This document shows positions 945 to 56,846 of a stretch of DNA of 64,000 nt, one piece after another. Position numbers and translations under genes: made by a program. The stretch lies in assembly GCF_055900595.2 (NCBI RefSeq), contig NZ_CM148325.1; one strand, written 5' to 3'. Positions within the stretch are counted from its first letter, which is position 1. Every line of letters begins with the position of its first letter. A model generated the notes under the pieces. That model had not been told where the DNA came from. It did not search any database and worked only from the letters and a program-made list of their open reading frames with translations.

Positions 945-3416
945 TTAAGAATCAGCCTGACTCGGGATCAGTTTTTGCCAGATAACTGAAACGTATTTTG
1001 CCTGGTAACGGGCGTCATCAAGTGCATTATGCCGCTCACCTTCGAATGGAATAGCCGTTCTGGCATCGAAGTCTATGGCTTTCCCCAGCTCAACGATTGT
1101 GCGTACATCGCGATCGTTGTAGTAACGCCACGGGCAGGGGATCCCCTGCCGTTCGTATGAACGGCGCAAAATCGTGTTGTCGAAGTTGGCTCCATTTCCC
1201 CAGACCTGAACAAAAAATTCACCGGAGTTTTCGTCGATAAATTCCCGCAATTGTAACAGTGCATCATCTAACGGGATTTCATCGGTCATAATGGCAGACT
1301 GCGCTTCACGTGATTGCTTCAGCCACCATTTAATGACGTCACGATCAATGACTCCGCCAGCAGTATTCAGATCTATGGTCTTGCTAAATTCCGGTCCCAT
1401 ATCTCCGGTTTGTGGATCGAAAAATATTGCGCCTATTGAGATAATCGGGGCATCAGGATTTTTTCCCATGGTTTCAAGGTCGATCATTAGATGGTCACAC
1501 GTCCTGCTGGTGGATGTGATAACGTGATGACCGTTCACCGTAATTAAGGGATCTGCCGTCTCGCCAGTTTCACTATCGCTGGCGTGATCCTGAGCGCTGC
1601 CAGCATTCTCCTTGTGTGGATGTTCAGCGCCTTCCATTTTCTCCGAATCGTCTTCCTGAACTTCAACCTGGTTCTTGTCATCGAATGTTTCCTGGTATGT
1701 TGCGTCGCCCATCACCGCACCACATTCAGGGCAGTTGCCGCCGCCGGTCTGACCGTAGGCGGTGCAGATTTTTTCCGCTTCCTGTTGCGCTACTGGCTCA
1801 GGTTGTTTCGTTTCTGGCTCGTTTTGTAACGCATTTGGGCTGTTTTGTTCCGCTTTCTGGTCGTTCTGTTCCGTTTCTTGCTGGTTCTGGTTCACTGAAT
1901 CGCGGGTTTCAATCCCCTTCACCCATTTCGGATCATTCGGATCGCTAATCCCTGCAACAAATTCACCACGTGATACAGCAAGCAACTGATTGGCGTCAGG
2001 CTGGCTGATATTGGCTGCCTGCATAATTTTGTTTACTTCGTCAGCGGTAATTTTTACCGGCTCTGGTTGTGCGGTCGTGTCAGATGCACCAGTATTTTGT
2101 TGTGAACCTGAGTATGTACCGTTTTTGCGGGCGAAATATTCTTCTTTCGTGATTTCAGTAGCCCCGGCAGCCAGCGCCTTATCCAGACCAGAAAGTTTGT
2201 TTGCGCGACCGTATTTTTCGCCATCCTTGTCGGTAAAGAGGAAGTAGAACGGCCCCTCACGCTCTACAGATGGTTCGACTTCCACTTTGCATTCAGTTTT
2301 TTCGTTGCCCGGAATTGCCGTTTCCACTGCATCAGTTTCTGGTACTGGCGACGAGAGAGTATCAGTTGCGCTCTGATTTGTTCCTTCATCTTCAAACACG
2401 CCCTTTGTAGTCAGGTATTTAGTAATGTATTTGTTCAGTGCCACAGGGTCTTTGTGAATGTCGATCGGACGTTCACGGACAAGGCCAAAAATAGTCTGGC
2501 GGTCGTAGCGAAGGGCATCAGGCTGTTTGCGCATTGATGCCGAGATACGCTTCCAGTCTTCGCGGTCGTTGTCGATAACTTCATTTTTTGCCCAGCGATG
2601 GATGCTGCCGTCAATGTTTCCGGCATCCACATCACCAGGCCAGAGAGCGTAGGCCAGTTCGTCATCCAGTGTTTTCCATGTCTGCTTGTATTCGCGATGA
2701 GTGGCAGCAATGACCGGGTTGATTTTTCCTGTTGAATTTTCAGTGTGCTGTTGATTGGCTCTGGCGCGGGCGAGATCAACAACAGACGTGTATTTTCCGG
2801 TTTCCTTGCGTTCATTTTCGCGACGTTTTTTCCAGATGCGCATCTCTGCCTGAATTTCGGGCCATTTAGCTCCAGGATTACATTTATGTTTAACCCACCC
2901 GATGGCATGCAGCTTAAGCTCCGGATACATGGCGTTAACTTCTGGCATTTTCATCAACGCTTCAACGATATGTCCGTCGAATGTTGCCATGTCTTCCTGC
3001 AACAATTCCTGCGCGCTAATCACCATATCAACGGTGATGTTTTCACATGTGTCGAACTTAACCATGACAGCGTTCTGTACTTCAGGGGCCAGCTTGTCAA
3101 AAGTGACGTTCATCGGATCTGATTCAGTCTCAACCGGGACAAAGGAAGCAGACTCCTCATCCCAGCGGTTTTCCTGCATATATTCAGCATCCCAGGAATC
3201 GAGGGCAGGGCGGGGTATACCGGGTTTATCCTCGCAAACAAGAAATTTATAAGCGCAGTCCTGAGCAACCGGATAATGTTCCAGGAATTGCCAGTGAAAT
3301 TTTGCGCGGGCGCGACGTTCATCACCGGCTTCAATGGCAGTGGCTACAGCGATTGCACCTTCTTCCTTTATTGCCTGTTCGTCCGGAATGGCGGCGCAAA
3401 TAAAGACTTTACTCAT
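945..3416 (-). CDS. Exonuclease-like early protein (823 aa) with C-terminal DnaQ/DEDDh-type 3'-5' exonuclease domain
   Basis: C-terminal motifs HLMIDLETMG, GANFDNTIL and HNALDDARYQAKY; central CPECG zinc-ribbon-like motif; Q/E-rich linker; position equivalent to lambda exo region. Confidence 0.75.
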   Translation of the reverse strand: MSKVFICAAIPDEQAIKEEGAIAVATAIEAGDERRARAKFHWQFLEHYPVAQDCAYKFLVCEDKPGIPRPALDSWDAEYMQENRWDEESASFVPVETESDPMNVTFDKLAPEVQNAVMVKFDTCENITVDMVISAQELLQEDMATFDGHIVEALMKMPEVNAMYPELKLHAIGWVKHKCNPGAKWPEIQAEMRIWKKRRENERKETGKYTSVVDLARARANQQHTENSTGKINPVIAATHREYKQTWKTLDDELAYALWPGDVDAGNIDGSIHRWAKNEVIDNDREDWKRISASMRKQPDALRYDRQTIFGLVRERPIDIHKDPVALNKYITKYLTTKGVFEDEGTNQSATDTLSSPVPETDAVETAIPGNEKTECKVEVEPSVEREGPFYFLFTDKDGEKYGRANKLSGLDKALAAGATEITKEEYFARKNGTYSGSQQNTGASDTTAQPEPVKITADEVNKIMQAANISQPDANQLLAVSRGEFVAGISDPNDPKWVKGIETRDSVNQNQQETEQNDQKAEQNSPNALQNEPETKQPEPVAQQEAEKICTAYGQTGGGNCPECGAVMGDATYQETFDDKNQVEVQEDDSEKMEGAEHPHKENAGSAQDHASDSETGETADPLITVNGHHVITSTSRTCDHLMIDLETMGKNPDAPIISIGAIFFDPQTGDMGPEFSKTIDLNTAGGVIDRDVIKWWLKQSREAQSAIMTDEIPLDDALLQLREFIDENSGEFFVQVWGNGANFDNTILRRSYERQGIPCPWRYYNDRDVRTIVELGKAIDFDARTAIPFEGERHNALDDARYQAKYVSVIWQKLIPSQADS

Positions 3417-4057: not shown

Positions 4058-4113
4058 AAACGGCGGCAGAGCAGTCACGGAGTAAAACTGATACCGCTAA
4101 ACGTCACCAGAAA
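4058..4113 (-). ncRNA. dicF: DicF small RNA (ftsZ-targeting sRNA of Qin-type prophages)
   Basis: Minus-strand sequence ttttctggtgacgtttagcggtatcagttttactccgtgactgctctgccgccg followed by a T-run; near-identical to DicF as I recall it. Confidence 0.8.
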
Positions 4114-5397: not shown

Positions 5398-6036
5398 TTA
5401 AATATCTTTTTGAATTTTAAAGCATACTCCCAATATGCAAGATAGATCATCCAGCATAATTGAAGGGTAGCGAGGATTCGTGGGGACTAAAAGAATATCC
5501 GGCCCTTCTATCTCCAGTTTGCGAATGACAGGCGTTGTGGTCCCTTTGGGTAAGGCAAGGACAATATTTCCTGGTTGTACGATTCGATCGGGATCAACAA
5601 AAACTGTTGAACCATTTGGGATGGAAACTCCACCACCAGATGTCGACATACTGTCACTCTCTAGAACAACAGCAAAGGTATTGGCCGGGATTTCTCCGAC
5701 AAGCTGCACACAAGAGGTTATTGAGGAATTTTTCATATAATCACTCCAGCTTGCTGCCTGCTGAAGTGATAGTAGCGGAACCGTTTTTATCGGCGGTAAA
5801 GATAGATCAAGCGAATCACCTGTATTTAACTCTCCTCCATTAAGAAGCCAATTTTCGTTTACTTTCAATATCTTTGCCAGTGAGCTTATGTAACGCGAGG
5901 ACGGCGCTCCTCCACCGTTCATCCATTGACTTACGGAGCCTTTTGATGCGCCAGTGGCATTGACAAGGTCTTTGCCTTTCAAGTTTAGCGCATGCATACG
6001 TTGGGTTATGCGTTCAGATATTGTTTGCTTGTTCAT
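5398..6036 (-). CDS. CI-like prophage repressor (HTH plus S24 LexA-like autopeptidase domain)
   Basis: 212 aa; N-terminal HTH region (LKGKDLVNATGASKGSVSQWMNG), C-terminal S24-like region; divergent from the cro-like gene. Confidence 0.85.
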   Translation of the reverse strand: MNKQTISERITQRMHALNLKGKDLVNATGASKGSVSQWMNGGGAPSSRYISSLAKILKVNENWLLNGGELNTGDSLDLSLPPIKTVPLLSLQQAASWSDYMKNSSITSCVQLVGEIPANTFAVVLESDSMSTSGGGVSIPNGSTVFVDPDRIVQPGNIVLALPKGTTTPVIRKLEIEGPDILLVPTNPRYPSIMLDDLSCILGVCFKIQKDI

Positions 6037-6054
6037 GTTTTGATTTTAAAACAC
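6034..6054. promoter_or_regulatory. Candidate right operator: ATGTTTT-N6-AAAACA palindrome
   Basis: Same half-sites as 5312-5333, located between cI and cro. Confidence 0.3.
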
Positions 6055-6069
6055 AGATGGTTTTGTTTC

Positions 6070-6099
6070 TTGACTTTCTTTGGTTTTGATTATTAAACT
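6070..6099 (+). promoter_or_regulatory. Candidate PR promoter (-35 TTGACT, -10 TAAACT, 18-bp spacer)
   Basis: Sigma70-like hexamers upstream of the cro-like gene with GGAG RBS at 6118-6121. Confidence 0.4.
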
Positions 6100-6128
6100 T
6101 TTGGCGTTCAGTTTTATGGAGCGAATCA

Positions 6129-6370
6129 TGAAAAAATCAGAAGTATTAGGCTATTTTGGCGGAGTTGTTAAAACAGCCGCCGCTCTAGGAACGTCAAAAA
6201 CCACAGTCAGCATGTGGGGGGAAGACGTTCCGTGGAAATGGGCGTTGCTAATTCAGGCAGTCACTGCCGGGGCGCTCAAATATGAGTTACACATACCGAC
6301 GGTTGTCATTCCCGGTTCTGATCATAATCCGCCTTCTAACCAAGGGGGGATTCATGAAAATCAAGCATGA
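6129..6370 (+). CDS. Cro-like HTH regulator
   Basis: MKKSEVLGYFGGVVKTAAALGTSKTTVSMWGEDVPW... small HTH protein divergent from cI. Confidence 0.75.
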
Positions 6371-6779
6371 ACACATCCGCATGGCGATGAATGCCTGGGC
6401 ACGTCCTGATGGCGAAAAAGTTCCGGCAGCTGGAATAACCCAGGCTTATTTTGAGTTGGGTATGACGTTTCCTAAACTGTACGACGACAGCCATCCGGAA
6501 GCCCTGGCTCGCAATACCCAGAAAATTTTCCGCTGGATAGAGAAAGACACCCCTGATGCAGTTGAAAAAATTCAGGCGTTGTTACCAGCGATCGAAAAGG
6601 CAATGCCACCTTTGCTGGTGGCCAGAATGCGCAGCCACAGTTCAGCTTATTTTCGGGAGCTGGTGGAGACGCGGGAGCGACTGGTGAGAGACGCTGATGA
6701 TTTTGTCGCAGTGGCAATCGCCGGTTTCAATCAGATGAACCGTGGTGGCCCGGCTGGAAATGCTGTGGCAGTACATTGA
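6354..6779 (+). CDS. CII-like / YdaT-family regulatory protein
   Basis: 141 aa starting MKIKHEHIRMAMNAWARPDGEK with a G-rich RBS; overlaps the end of cro. Confidence 0.6.
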   Translation: MKIKHEHIRMAMNAWARPDGEKVPAAGITQAYFELGMTFPKLYDDSHPEALARNTQKIFRWIEKDTPDAVEKIQALLPAIEKAMPPLLVARMRSHSSAYFRELVETRERLVRDADDFVAVAIAGFNQMNRGGPAGNAVAVH

Positions 6780-6850
6780 CTGACAATAGCCATATCGAAT
6801 CGCTTCCGGCAACTCGTGAGTAAAAAGATTCGGTATCAGAAGAGGTGAGT

Positions 6851-7921
6851 ATGGCTAACGCCTGGCTCAGATTATGGCATGACATGCCAAATGACCCTAA
6901 GTGGCGAACAATTGCCAGGGTGTCAGGGCAGCCAATTGCAACAGTGATGGCAGTGTATATCCACCTCCTGGTGAGCGCGTCACGAAATGTCACGCGAGGT
7001 CACATTGATGTCACGACAGAAGATTTGGCAAGTGCGCTCGACGTGACAGAAGAGGTAATTGATTCAATTTTGCAGACGATGCAGGGGCGGGTACTTGATG
7101 GTGATTTAATCACTGGATGGGAAAAACGCCAGGTGCTGAAAGAGGACAACGGTAATATTTCGCAAACCGCAAAATCTCCGGCAGAGCGCAAGAGGGCGCA
7201 GCGAGAGAGGGAAAGAAAGCGGGAACAAAATGGCGATTGTCACGGCGAGTCACGAAATGTCACGCACATGTCACGACGAGTCACGACAGATAAAGATACA
7301 GATAAAGATACAGATCAAGAAGATCAAAACACTATGGTCCATGGCGTAAAAAACGCCGCGAACCAGGCAGGGGATGTTCAGACCGTCAATCTTGGTCAGC
7401 CAGCAGGCACGACACCGGAAGCCGATTCAGCGTATGCGCTGAAAGCCGATTCGGGCGCTGTGCAGCAGGTGATGACCGCAAGGCAGGAGCAATCACACCA
7501 ACTTCAGCAGCCTGAAGCCGATTCCGCCATTCAGCGGGAAGCCGATCGGGTAGTCCCGGAAAACACCGGGCAGCCTGTGGGACGAGTGGATTATCCTGAT
7601 GTGTTCGAACAGGTCTGGCGGGAATACCCGTTGCGTGCCGGGGCAAACCCGAAGAAATCCGCTTTCAGTGCCTGGAAGGCCAGATTACGCGAGGGGGTGC
7701 CACCAGAGGCCATGCTGGATGGCGTGAGGCGTTACGCAAGATACCTGGCGGCTACCGGGAAAACGGGAACGGAATTTGTTCAGCGAGCGACGACGTTTTT
7801 TGGACCGGACCGGAATTTTGAAAACCCCTGGTTGCTCCCGGTAAGCGGTACGAACAACCAGCGTTGTGTGAATCATATTTCTGAACCGGATACCGAAATT
7901 CCACCGGGCTTCAGGGGGTAA
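6851..7921 (+). CDS. Replication initiation protein (O-like, DUF1376/YdaU-type N-terminus) containing origin iterons
   Basis: N-terminal MANAWLRLWHDMPNDPKWRTIARVSG...; GAGG RBS; two clusters of GTCACG repeats inside the gene. Confidence 0.7.
   Translation: MANAWLRLWHDMPNDPKWRTIARVSGQPIATVMAVYIHLLVSASRNVTRGHIDVTTEDLASALDVTEEVIDSILQTMQGRVLDGDLITGWEKRQVLKEDNGNISQTAKSPAERKRAQRERERKREQNGDCHGESRNVTHMSRRVTTDKDTDKDTDQEDQNTMVHGVKNAANQAGDVQTVNLGQPAGTTPEADSAYALKADSGAVQQVMTARQEQSHQLQQPEADSAIQREADRVVPENTGQPVGRVDYPDVFEQVWREYPLRAGANPKKSAFSAWKARLREGVPPEAMLDGVRRYARYLAATGKTGTEFVQRATTFFGPDRNFENPWLLPVSGTNNQRCVNHISEPDTEIPPGFRG
6979..7019. repeat. Iteron cluster 1 (GTCACG-type repeats at about 10-bp phasing)
   Basis: gtcacgaaatgtcacgcgaggtcacattgatgtcacgacag. 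Confidence 0.7.
7239..7315. repeat. Iteron cluster 2 plus adjacent tandem repeat gataaagataca x2
   Basis: gtcacggcgagtcacgaaatgtcacgcacatgtcacgacgagtcacgacag, then ataaagatacagataaagatacagat; the 16-mer tcacgaaatgtcacgc is shared exactly with cluster 1. Confidence 0.7.
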
Positions 7922-7961
7922 GTGTGTATTTCAGGTCATGAGGTAATTTTCAGGAGGACTT

Positions 7962-8387
7962 GTGGCAAAAGTTTTTACACAAGAAGAGCGAGAAAAAATT
8001 AAGGGGCAGGTTGTTGAACTTGTACGTCTGAGTGGTCGCGAGACGTTACGGGCTCTGGAGGCTAAAACCGGTGCATCAAGGTATTACATAAGCACTCTCG
8101 CCAGAGAGCTGGTTGCCAGCGGCGATGTATACAACTCTGGTTACGGATTATTCCCGTCTGAACAGGCTCGTAAGGACTGGCAAAATGCCCGCAAAAAACT
8201 CTCAAGGGCAAAGCTGAAGAAAAAAACATCTGTGGTTGATCCGGACCTTATCTGGTCATTACCTGACGGAGAAATACGTCGCTACGACAGTCGTCTAAAC
8301 ATAATCTGTCGCGAGTGCCGGAAGAGCGAAGTTATGCAGCGCATACTGGCATTTTATCAGGGAAATGTTTGGTATTTATTGAAATGA
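7962..8387 (+). CDS. Hypothetical phage protein (possible HTH), replication-module position
   Basis: 141-aa ORF with GTG start 4 nt after AGGAGG; no recognisable catalytic motif. Confidence 0.5.
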   Translation: MAKVFTQEEREKIKGQVVELVRLSGRETLRALEAKTGASRYYISTLARELVASGDVYNSGYGLFPSEQARKDWQNARKKLSRAKLKKKTSVVDPDLIWSLPDGEIRRYDSRLNIICRECRKSEVMQRILAFYQGNVWYLLK

Positions 8388-8595
8388 CGAGATTAAAGAG
8401 CATTAGTTCAGATATTAATTGACACTTCGGTTGCATAAGACTAGAACTAGTGTGATTGGCATCTTTGTACCAAAAACGGACATTACAGTGTATGGTTAAT
8501 TCTGCCTGTCAAATAACTTACATTCATCAAATGATCGAAATTATGACTTAGCTCAACAATTAGGTTTAGCATGGGTCATATGACTAGAGTGTAGC

Positions 8596-9669: not shown

Positions 9670-9823
9670 TTTTATATTGGCGAGGTGACGTGAGTTAAGT
9701 AGAATTGCTGCGGGTGCTTGAGGCTATCTGCCTCAGGCATGAACACCAACGGCAGATAGAGAAAAGCCCCAGTTAACATTACGCGTCCTGCAAGACGCTT
9801 AACATTAATCTGAGGCCAATTTC

Positions 9824-10036
9824 ATGCTAGACACATGTAGGTTAGCCTCTTACGTGCCGGAAGGCAAGGAGAAGCAGGCTATGAAGCAGCAAAAGGCGAT
9901 GTTAATCGCCCTGATCGTCATCTGTTTAACCGTCATAGTGACGGCACTGGTAACGAGGAAAGACCTCTGCGAGGTACGAATCCGAACCGGCCAGACGGAG
10001 GTCGCTGTCTTCACAGCTTACGAACCTGAGGAGTAA
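9824..10036 (+). CDS. mok: mok-like reading frame overlapping hok
   Basis: 70-aa frame that starts upstream of and reads through hok, as in hok/sok loci. Confidence 0.5.
   Translation: MLDTCRLASYVPEGKEKQAMKQQKAMLIALIVICLTVIVTALVTRKDLCEVRIRTGQTEVAVFTAYEPEE
9881..10036 (+). CDS. hok: Hok/Gef-family type I toxin
   Basis: 51 aa MKQQKAMLIALIVICLTVIVTALVTRKDLCEVRIRTGQTEVAVFTAYEPEE, Hok family (HokD/RelF-like as I recall it). Confidence 0.85.
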   Translation: MKQQKAMLIALIVICLTVIVTALVTRKDLCEVRIRTGQTEVAVFTAYEPEE

Positions 10037-19053: not shown

Positions 19054-19416
19054 ATTAATATTAAATCGGATTATTTTTAGCGCTGAATGTGAAATTTAAA
19101 TAAAAAGGACTCTTCCATGAGTCAAAATCCTTGAAATCTTAAGGGTAAGATAAAAGGTCATTAGACAGAATGACACGTTTTATTAATAAATAAAGCTATT
19201 GTTTCATTCGTGTGTTTTTCTTTACAAAAGTAATCCTTGCTATGGTTGGTTAATCATGCGTTAATGGTGTTCTGGTTTGTTACAAAATTATCTGAAGCAG
19301 TCATTGTTATAATTTTATTATTTGTACCTCTTGAGATTTCCTTGTTGGTTTTTCTCTCTGATATTTTTTTTCGGACCATTCTGCCCAAGGGCTAACTTCT
19401 TCAAAAGGTAATAATG

Positions 19417-19629
19417 ATGTCTAACAAAATGACTGGTTTAGTGAAATGGTTTAACCCTGAAAAAGGTTTTGGTTTCATCACGCCGAAAGATGGTAGCAAA
19501 GATGTGTTTGTCCATTTCTCAGCTATTCAGAGCAACGATTTCAAAACGTTAACTGAGAATCAGGAAGTCGAATTTGGTATTGAGAACGGACCTAAAGGCC
19601 CCGCGGCTGTTCATGTTGTGGCACTTTGA
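19417..19629 (+). CDS. cspI: Cold shock protein (CspI-like)
   Basis: [38 protein letters not shown]... cold-shock domain. Confidence 0.9.
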
Positions 19630-19828
19630 GGTAGATAATATTACAAACCATATTCACTTTAGATGCCCGTGTTGCCATGGTTCTCAGTATAGAACATCAT
19701 CTTTTGATGTTTCTGACAGGAATCCTTTCGGGGCAAAATGTATCTTTTGTAAATCAATGATGATTACATTTGATAATATTTCACAATACTTAAATGTTAG
19801 CCGTCTATCGTTAGATTTAAGAAAGTGA
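19613..19828 (+). CDS. Possible small Cys4 zinc-ribbon protein
   Basis: [10 protein letters not shown]...CIFCKS motif; weak RBS; start overlaps the csp stop. Confidence 0.3.
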
Positions 19829-40623: not shown

Positions 40624-41330
40624 TGCACAGAAAACCCCCAGCTAGGCTGGGGGTTCCGGAAAGCTTTCAGCTTTGAGCCAGTTATTAAAACCCCTTTTGA
40701 TTTGTTAAAACACCTTGCGGTCTGGCAACTGCAAGTGTCAAACAAGAAATCAAAAGGGGGTCCCAATGGGGGACGAAAAGAGCTTAGCGCACACCCGCTG
40801 GAACTGTAAATATCACATAGTTTTTGCGCCGAAATACCGAAGACTGGCGTTTTACGGAGAGAAGCGTAGGGCGATAGGCAGTATTTTGAGAAAGCTGTGT
40901 GAGTGGAAAAGCGTACGGATTCTGGAAGCAGAGTGCTGCGCAGATCATATCCATATGCTTGTGGAAATCCCACCCAAAATGAGCGTATCCGGCTTTATGG
41001 GATATCTGAAAGGGAAAAGCAGTCTGATGCTTTACGAGCAGTTTGGGGATTTGAAATTCAAATACAGAAACAGGGAGTTCTGGTGCCGAGGGTACTATGT
41101 CGATACGGTGGGTAAGAACACGGCGAAGATACAGGACTACATAAAGCACCAGCTTGAAGAGGATAAAATGGGGGAGCAGTTATCGATTCCATATCCGGGC
41201 AGCCCGTTTACGGGCCGTAAGTAACGAAGTTGAATGCAAATGTCAGATCGTATGCGCCTGTTAGGGCGCGGCTGGTAACAGAGCCTTACAGGCGCATTTG
41301 AAAAACCTCCGGCTATGCCGGAGGATATTT
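40621..41330 (+). mobile_element. IS200-family insertion sequence (about 710 bp, boundaries approximate)
   Basis: Left-end hairpin cccccagctaggctggggg, second stem-loop over the RBS, tnpA, right-end hairpin cctccggctatgccggagg. Confidence 0.8.
40766..41224 (+). CDS. tnpA: IS200 transposase TnpA (HUH Y1 transposase)
   Basis: MGDEKSLAHTRWNCKYHIVFAPKYRR...HIHMLVEIPPKMSVS matches IS200 TnpA. Confidence 0.9.
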   Translation: MGDEKSLAHTRWNCKYHIVFAPKYRRLAFYGEKRRAIGSILRKLCEWKSVRILEAECCADHIHMLVEIPPKMSVSGFMGYLKGKSSLMLYEQFGDLKFKYRNREFWCRGYYVDTVGKNTAKIQDYIKHQLEEDKMGEQLSIPYPGSPFTGRK

Positions 41331-56532: not shown

Positions 56533-56577
56533 GCTCCGTTTAACATTCATTGAGAAAACTGATGCTACTGTGTCAAC

Positions 56578-56677
56578 GATCCGTTATCAGTGCAGGAAAA
56601 TGCCTGTTAGCGTAAAAGCAAAACACAAATCTATCCATGCAAGCATTCACCGCCGGTTTACTGGCGGTTTTTTTTCG
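56578..56677 (+). ncRNA. mgrR: Candidate MgrR small RNA (boundaries approximate)
   Basis: Intergenic position between dgcZ and mgtS; ends at intrinsic terminator ccgccggtttactggcggtttttttt. Confidence 0.45.
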
Positions 56678-56750
56678 CCGTCATAAAAATCAGGCCCCTT
56701 GTACACAGTTGTAACAAGGGGCCGGTTAGGTGAGGGATTATCTCCGTTCA

Positions 56751-56846
56751 TTAGTCATCCCATTTGTGGCTGAAATACGCGGCCAGAAAACCAGAAAATA
56801 AAATTATTCCCAGTACGGCCATAAAAACATTCATATTACCCAGCAT
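56751..56846 (-). CDS. mgtS: Small membrane protein MgtS (YneM), 31 aa
   Basis: Minus-strand MLGNMNVFMAVLGIILFSGFLAAYFSHKWDD; not in the ORF track because of size. Confidence 0.8.
   Translation of the reverse strand: MLGNMNVFMAVLGIILFSGFLAAYFSHKWDD

Follow-up and report, generated by a model that had tools for sequence, protein, structure and literature searches.

The stretch of DNA analysed here, 64,000 nucleotides of contig NZ_CM148325.1 (RefSeq assembly GCF_055900595.2) and referred to below as the window, includes the early-right region of a lambdoid, Qin/Rac-like prophage of Escherichia coli. The gene encoding its replication initiator, a protein of 356 amino acids (positions 6851–7921, + strand), holds two arrays of GTCACG-type hexamers, the second of which is adjoined by an AT-rich tract. 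Our comparative analysis indicates that these elements are probably the replication origin of the prophage, located inside the gene of its own initiator. Placing the origin at positions 6979–7335 provides a concrete target for work on how Qin/Rac-like prophages, and inducible phages such as Tritos, replicate. This result would extend a principle familiar from lambda and SPP1 to an unclassified protein family and does not overturn current understanding; its notable aspects are an additional array in the region coding for the presumed DNA-binding domain and a family-wide switching among at least four iteron classes. No published description of this origin or of its repeats was found in the literature on replisome organizers and iterons, Eru-type Stx phages, oriJ and YdaU.

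Phased hexamer arrays and an AT-rich tract in the initiator gene

Nine hexamers, eight GTCACG and one GTCACA, were located on the + strand of the initiator gene. Array 1 (6979–7019, + strand) consists of GTCACG at 6979, 6989 and 7010 and GTCACA at 6999, with successive spacings of 10, 10 and 11 bp, and encodes amino acids 43–57, which in the N-terminal domain span the last part of a helix and the loop after it. Array 2 (7239–7289, + strand) consists of five GTCACG units at 7239, 7249, 7259, 7270 and 7280 (spacing 10, 10, 11 and 10 bp) and lies in the segment coding for the inter-domain linker. A single inverted GTCACG is present on the − strand at 7042–7047, 23 bp downstream of array 1. These positions confirm a preliminary description of the window, which had reported nine such repeats in two clusters at about 10-bp phasing; the exact 16-mer that it noted in both clusters is also present, the shared stretch being in fact 17 bp long (GTCACGAAATGTCACGC, at 6979–6995 and 7249–7265). 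Tandem Repeats Finder detected a 10-bp period repeated 4.9 times at 7239–7288, as well as the short tandem repeat that had been described after the second cluster, ACAGATAAAGAT, a 12-bp unit repeated 2.9 times at 7286–7320.

The clustering of the hexamers is non-random. On both strands of the window together, GTCACG was observed 34 times against 25 expected, and the nine units fall within 320 bp, while in 200 first-order Markov simulations the largest count per 320-bp stretch averaged 2.1 and never exceeded four. No other GTCACG cluster was found in the 64-kb window.

The AT-rich, purine-rich tract that follows array 2 (7286–7335, + strand) is made up of the 2.9 copies of ACAGATAAAGAT plus the following bases and is proposed to be a DNA-unwinding element. 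Its GC content is about 30% at 7301–7330. Nearest-neighbour stacking energies placed the start of the least stable 40-bp duplex of the region 5401–8400 at position 7289 (tract 7289–7329), and for instability this duplex is at the 99th percentile within the window as a whole. Most homologues have an equivalent tract, (C)AGATAAAGATAAAGA or CAGATACAGATACAG, after the array, and the 40 bp past the array in the homologues surveyed are typically 60–80% A+T and purine-rich. The tract is often a long perfect microsatellite, such as nine copies of CAGATT or five to six copies of CAGATA (L105 at about 1980–2040; L104, L120, L121 and L161), which suggests that post-iteron microsatellites are length-variable linkers and unwinding elements in this initiator family. 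Two GATC (Dam) sites lie 9 bp apart within the proposed unwinding tract of the window, at 7313–7316 and 7322–7325; they are probably incidental, and are absent from the corresponding tract of the relatives L002 and L003.

The arrays are a signal at the level of DNA and are under selection at that level. The hexamers start in codon phases 2, 0, 1 and 0 in array 1 and in phases 1, 2, 0, 2 and 0 in array 2, and because all three phases are represented, no peptide repeat accounts for them. The strings SRNVT and VTT recur in the translated arrays, as would be expected if the DNA repeat merely mirrored a repeated peptide motif, but this explanation is effectively refuted by the use of all three phases, and it also fails to account for the conservation of synonymous positions and for spacers that vary freely at the peptide level. 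In a comparison of the window with L085, a homologue on a Pseudomonas-type contig that encodes an approximately 70% identical protein, codons for identical residues were unchanged in 18 of 19 cases overlapping the hexamers, versus 34 of 78 outside them (Fisher p = 5e-5). In the E. coli relatives L002 and L003, which have 85–88% DNA identity to the window, all hexamers of array 2 are intact, while the spacers differ and the 11-bp unit has moved; their array 1 has six units, two of which were gained via a 21-bp in-frame insertion that adds seven residues at the loop site. Across L002, L003 and L085 taken together, the hexamers stay constant, and the changes affect the spacers, the number of units and the place of the 11-bp unit. 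Variation among 76 near-identical copies is found nearly entirely in the spacers. The first viral_contigs scan gave only copies that were 99–100% identical, which show conservation in the population and no divergence; the second scan was seeded from distant members.

Repeat classes and modular exchange among homologues

Homologues of the N-terminal 130 residues of the initiator were gathered and aligned and their DNA was fetched, giving 62 distinct homologues for the survey. The relatives also included sequences from one Pseudomonas aeruginosa record and from many metagenomic viral contigs. Nearly all of the 62 have a phased hexamer array at the same linker position, and most have two to four copies of the same hexamer in the loop-coding zone. 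The preliminary description had regarded a lack of repeats in homologous initiator genes as evidence that would count against an origin, and phased arrays were found at the same positions in the relatives examined. When both strands of the flanks (about 3 kb) were searched, most homologues had zero to five motif copies, and three longer flanks of the CGAACGC class (7–8 kb) had 8–12.

The motif differs by subfamily, being GTCACG, CGAACGC, GTAACGC or GTGACGC, and is mostly switched in both arrays together. L085 has kept four plus four GTCACG units, an exact inverted copy (GACGTGACAG) and AGATAAAGATACAGAAGAAGAG, and the inverted copy of L002 and L003 is of the GTCACA type. Homologues that are about 50% identical (L086, L087, L088, L094 and many viral contigs) have CGAACGC at both alignment positions with 10–11 bp phasing, followed by AGATAAAGATAAAGA, and in other subfamilies these alignment positions are occupied by GTAACGC(A) or GTGACGC(A). 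The number of units is variable, with four versus six in array 1 and three to seven in array 2. The distance between the arrays ranges from about 220 to 280 bp among homologues, and no argument is made here from helical in-phase placement of the two arrays relative to each other. A DnaA-box-like string spotted by eye at about 6956 (TATATCCAC) was dropped, as it is not conserved in L085. With one conserved protein scaffold and at least four classes of iteron, the family is a natural data set for how a winged-helix initiator reads its repeats.

As judged by these alignments, the motif tracks the N-terminal domain of the initiator and not the neighbouring regulator. This bears on the question of whether the repeats are sites for another protein, either a YdaT/CII-like activator or a host factor at an internal or antisense promoter, which is highly improbable. 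Inside coding regions, lambda CII recognizes direct repeats of TTGC spaced by 10 bp, which the 10-bp direct-repeat geometry of the arrays resembles, and a YdaT/CII-like gene lies directly upstream of the initiator gene. However, the YdaT proteins of the window and of L004, an O157 prophage type, have 88% identity despite unrelated repeats (GTCACG versus AAGGGGCTT), and L085 retains GTCACG behind different upstream genes, among which no YdaT family was detected, so that recognition by YdaT is rejected; furthermore, four to six copies per array exceed the need of a CII-type site. The promoter alternative can draw on one weak promoter-like match on the − strand (7263–7236), but three promoter-like matches compare with 2.4 expected in shuffled sequence. 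Because promoter and terminator scans of positions 5900–8500 gave nothing above shuffled expectation, no internal promoter is proposed.

Three initiator types with no detectable N-domain similarity to that of the window were found to have repeats of their own in the same layout. L004 has three plus three copies of AAGGGGCTT, at 2660–2701 and 2916–2968, and Stx phage 75/02 (L090) has the AAGGGGCTT motif at 3078–3105 and 3331–3352, the second cluster being inverted. The L004 and L090 initiators combine a different N-domain with the same C-domain as in the window, and their clusters are located at equivalent positions and are followed by a GAACAG-rich purine tract. In the Rac gene ydaU (L091, E. 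coli K-12, 2761–3120), two GATGTTCAA-type repeats are found in the N-terminal half and at least four in the middle of the gene, and the latter are followed by AATAAAGATACAGATAAAGATC, in a layout like that of the window. A near-identical AAAGATACAGATAAAGAT string is common to otherwise unrelated initiator genes, including ydaU, and may be a recombination linker.

Homology with L002-type genes, which share the N-domain of the window and have another C-domain, stops at 7308, and homology with L004-type genes, which share the C-domain and have another N-domain, starts at 7326; the boundary between the two modules is thus located in the AT tract, at 7309–7325. Because similarity ends and begins at this junction, the N-domain, the arrays and the AT tract travel as one cassette. 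In the relatives examined, this exchangeable cassette is joined to at least four downstream replication modules, namely the C-domain of the window with no loader (window and Tritos), a DnaT-like C-domain with a P-like loader, a small O-C-terminal-like protein with a primase-helicase, and a small open reading frame (ORF) with a DnaB-like helicase. In distant relatives, the gene for the N-domain is short and stands alone, with a small ORF and then a DnaB-type helicase downstream of it. The N-domain homologues from metagenomes include some (P0043, P0061, P0062, P0074, P0101, P0103 and P0113) that are fused to an HNH endonuclease (PF01844/PF14279) and not to a replication adaptor, and in L087 an HNH gene lies directly upstream of the organizer gene.

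The location of this module junction a few bases from the repeats, in the AT tract, together with the variable number of units and a coding product that is probably a disordered linker, might also suggest that the repeats are a by-product and do not serve in binding, that is, a slippage-prone linker or a recombination linker at the module boundary, with the arrays kept similar by gene conversion. Neutral slippage would copy whole units, spacer included, whereas the hexamers are invariant while the spacers drift, and synonymous sites within the hexamers are conserved. Helical phasing is also kept across homologues, and each of the at least four motif classes has the same architecture. This explanation is therefore considered very unlikely.

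It is unlikely that the arrays are autoregulatory operators only, with which the initiator or another phage protein blocks or attenuates transcription while the origin lies elsewhere. Phased direct repeats in a coding region could obstruct transcription from an early promoter upstream of them, this compact module has no evident separate regulator for the initiator, and autoregulation via iteron binding is common among plasmid Rep proteins. Such a role is compatible with origin function and does not exclude it. As the only role, it would leave unexplained the low-stability AT tract that is conserved directly 3' of the array across nearly all homologues; moreover, the window has no second GTCACG cluster to be the real origin, and the N-domain, arrays and AT tract move as a unit beside different helicase-recruiting modules. 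Helically phased arrays of short repeats are typical of plasmid parC-type centromeres and of some pac sites as well, but it is scarcely credible that those of the window are a site for centromere-like partition or for recognition in packaging in place of an origin. No partition gene was seen in the surroundings of the arrays, either in the ORF list or in the annotation. In all contexts examined, contigs with quite different neighbouring genes among them, the arrays stay attached to the N-domain of the initiator, and the adjacent unwinding-type tract would have no explanation.

The initiator protein and a proposed mechanism

The initiator, identified from the ORF list and by its match to PHROG 3729 ('replication initiation protein', E = 1e-256), comprises an N-terminal winged-helix-like domain, a linker encoded by the array 2 iterons and the AT tract, a C-terminal adaptor domain and a DnaT-like tail. 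The N-terminal folded domain (amino acids 1–95; 6851–7135, + strand) is presumed to be the iteron-binding module. In an AlphaFold2 model based on 22 homologues, the block-mean predicted local distance difference test score was 81–96 for residues 11–90, and helices at 4–14, 16–25, 29–45, 56–63 and 67–77 plus a beta hairpin were in a winged-helix-like arrangement, while the linker region was of low confidence and probably disordered. Foldseek searches against BFVD gave weak matches to phage 'replisome organizer' proteins (E = 0.06–0.3), which are suggestive only. The Pfam family Phage_rep_org_N (PF09681) was matched below threshold, with E = 0.24 for the full protein and 0.034 for amino acids 1–160, nearly the whole model being spanned, and across the 22 homologues one reached 4e-4. 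As modelled, the fold of the N-domain is winged-helix-like and unclassified, and it resembles replisome organizers only weakly.

The preliminary description had assigned a DUF1376/YdaU-type N-terminus to this protein, and this assignment is not supported. No Pfam match to DUF1376 was obtained even at E ≤ 10 with the full protein or the 22-member alignment, and BLASTP against E. coli K-12 YdaU, which is annotated as DUF1376, aligned only the last 19 residues (338–356) and a low-complexity linker. A search of NCBIfam gave no match for the initiator.

The C-terminal half of the initiator matches phrog_1701 ('DnaD-like helicase loader'). A phmmer search against the PDB indicated that the tail RCVNHISEPDTEIPPGFRG (amino acids 336–356; 7856–7918, + strand) is almost the same as the sequence at the very C-terminal end of host DnaT, RDVNTVSEPDSQIPPGFRG (9zbt_D residues 159–179; 6aep, 2ru8). 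The DnaT-like tail is also present on Rac YdaU and on the O157-type initiator. This resemblance suggests that the tail may be a mimic or docking peptide onto host primosome or helicase-loading proteins; a 2026 preprimosome paper does not state the function of the DnaT C-terminal tail.

From these features we infer a mechanism that includes binding, melting, helicase recruitment, a role for array 1 and firing of the origin. The N-terminal winged-helix-like domain would bind the hexamers, and because a spacing of 10–11 bp puts the hexamers on one face of the helix, several protomers could assemble side by side. Array 2 (7239–7289) would be the core of the origin, and array 1 (6979–7019) might be bridged with it into one nucleoprotein complex. 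Strain from this complex would melt the neighbouring low-stability, purine-rich tract at 7286–7335, and the C-terminal domain with its DnaT-like tail would recruit the host helicase machinery, the module encoding no loader of its own. As inferred from the gene order, early rightward transcription would cross the proposed origin, as it does at lambda ori.

A further, doubtful proposal is that the origin is bipartite, with array 1 being more than a set of spare sites, and that the loop encoded by array 1 (amino acids 45–55) contacts the iteron, so that the binding site and its determinant are in the same nucleotides. The only residues of the folded domain that perfectly discriminate the GTCACG class (13 sequences) from the CGAACGC class (44 sequences) are loop positions 47, 48 and 51, and an Arg-Gly pair within the same loop is nearly invariant. 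As array 1 lies in the codons of this loop, a change of iteron necessarily alters the loop. If the loop does contact the iteron, the initiator gene would have an inherent means of switching origin specificity in a coordinated manner, and this could account for the at least four specificity classes.

Several observations weigh against the arrays and tract being an origin recognized by the initiator. The N-domain has no significant Pfam match to characterised origin-binding families, either as part of the full protein or in the 22-member alignment, its Foldseek matches in the PDB are generic winged helix-turn-helix regulators only (E > 0.2), and hhalign of the family profile against SPP1 G38P gave a probability of 0.2%, that is, no similarity. 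Array 1 is missing in some subfamilies (L145, L162 and L169) and may therefore not be essential; a role for two separated arrays is speculative, and the matched changes in the two arrays could result in part from gene conversion between them. The prophage module of the window is without any helicase loader. Finally, the window copy of the prophage may be cryptic or defective and its origin idle, because both the integrase (1–737) and the cro-like gene (6279–6520) are frameshifted in the identical RefSeq locus L001 (window coordinates equal those of L001 minus 150).

Comparison with known systems and prophage context

The lambda ori lies inside gene O, and the proposed origin resembles it in being located inside the initiator gene, in the segment for the linker between a DNA-binding N-domain and a helicase-recruiting C-domain, with direct repeats followed by an AT-rich, strand-asymmetric tract (7286–7335 in the window). 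In both cases the gene stands just after a cII-like gene in a lambdoid early right operon, and exchange of the N-domain takes the iterons along with it, the two forming one unit of specificity; some relatives (L002 and L003) even pair the N-domain of the window type with a lambda-P-like loader. In contrast to lambda O, the initiator has no Phage_rep_O match in Pfam at E ≤ 10 (full protein and 22-member alignment), and the module has no P gene and continues with a DUF977/Ren-like gene. The preliminary description had likened the repeats to lambda iterons within an initiator gene. This comparison stands with respect to the origin-iteron behaviour of the repeats, the arrays of relatives and the AT tract, and does not hold for the form of the repeats: lambda has four contiguous 19-bp dyad-symmetric iterons, whereas the window has units of 10–11 bp with a core of 6–7 bp, in two arrays about 260 bp apart, one of them within the region coding for the DNA-binding domain.

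The window shares with iteron-type origins in general the spacing of repeats by a helical turn, their conservation in relatives and their change with the DNA-binding domain of the initiator. Iteron-regulated plasmids and the ori/crr system of phage P4 have helically phased short direct repeats and a second, distant cluster served by one initiator, which is the nearest analogy to the two-array layout of the window. No relationship to them in sequence or fold is expected, and the extra cluster of the window differs in being part of the sequence that codes for the DNA-binding domain of the initiator itself.

In SPP1, the organizer gp38 binds direct repeats of oriL, which are located within gene 38 beside an AT-rich unwinding element (PMC6316719). 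The window is similar to SPP1, with its G38P organizer, G39P loader and G40P helicase, in that the repeats and the AT-rich unwinding element are in the organizer's own gene; in addition, distant relatives of the N-domain show the 38/39/40 order of organizer, small ORF and DnaB-type helicase, and some RefSeq and phage records call close homologues 'phage replisome organizer'. Homology is uncertain, given the sub-threshold PF09681 match and the hhalign result against G38P described above, and the host of the window prophage is Gram-negative. Unlike in SPP1, the organizer of the window forms one protein with a C-terminal adaptor that ends in a DnaT-like tail, and there is neither a phage helicase nor a loader after it.

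The Rac prophage, which is reported to have an active origin, oriJ (PMC3945230), has YdaU (DUF1376) and YdaV in the same genomic slot after ydaS/ydaT-like genes. YdaU has the same DnaT-like tail, and its gene has mid-gene GATGTTCAA-type repeats followed by AAAGATACAGATAAAGAT. The N-domains are not detectably related, however, the repeat sequences differ, and ydaU is followed by the DnaC-like gene ydaV. As a conjecture, the ydaU repeats are a candidate position for Rac oriJ; mapped coordinates of oriJ were not found in the literature.

The gene order around the initiator was established from PHROG matches and from the RefSeq annotation of the identical locus. Upstream of it lie a cI-like repressor gene (5398–6036, − strand), of whose 212-amino-acid ORF RefSeq annotates just the C-terminal 113 amino acids, a Cro-like gene (6128–6370, + strand) and the YdaT/CII-like gene (6354–6779, + strand). 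Downstream is the DUF977/Ren-like gene (7962–8387, + strand), which matches PHROG 142 at 8e-44 and is annotated as DUF977 in RefSeq. No phage helicase loader was found by PHROG or in the RefSeq annotation between the initiator and this gene (7921–7962), and phage Tritos (L089, 5071–5112) has the same loader-less layout of an initiator followed by a DUF977/Ren-like gene. Relatives with the same N-domain (L002 and L003) have a P-like loader and a different C-domain, and in relatives with the same C-domain (L004 and L090) a DnaC-like loader/ATPase gene is next.

Seven deposited phage records, those of Tritos and Evi among them, have genes that match the initiator gene along its entire length with 97.7–98.9% DNA identity; the names given to these genes are replication protein, replisome organiser, protein O or primosomal protein I, and one record is unannotated. 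The initiator gene was matched in 2534 of 5426 complete E. coli genomes (approximately 47%), with a near-full-length copy in 1646.

Elsewhere in the window, Rfam matches above the gathering score were obtained for the DicF small RNA (4061–4112, − strand), the sok antitoxin RNA adjoining hokD (9712–9886, + strand), the cspA thermoregulator (19259–19675, + strand), STnc490 (40633–40756, + strand) and STnc560 (56544–56757, + strand), all of which are ordinary for a Qin-like prophage and flanking chromosome.

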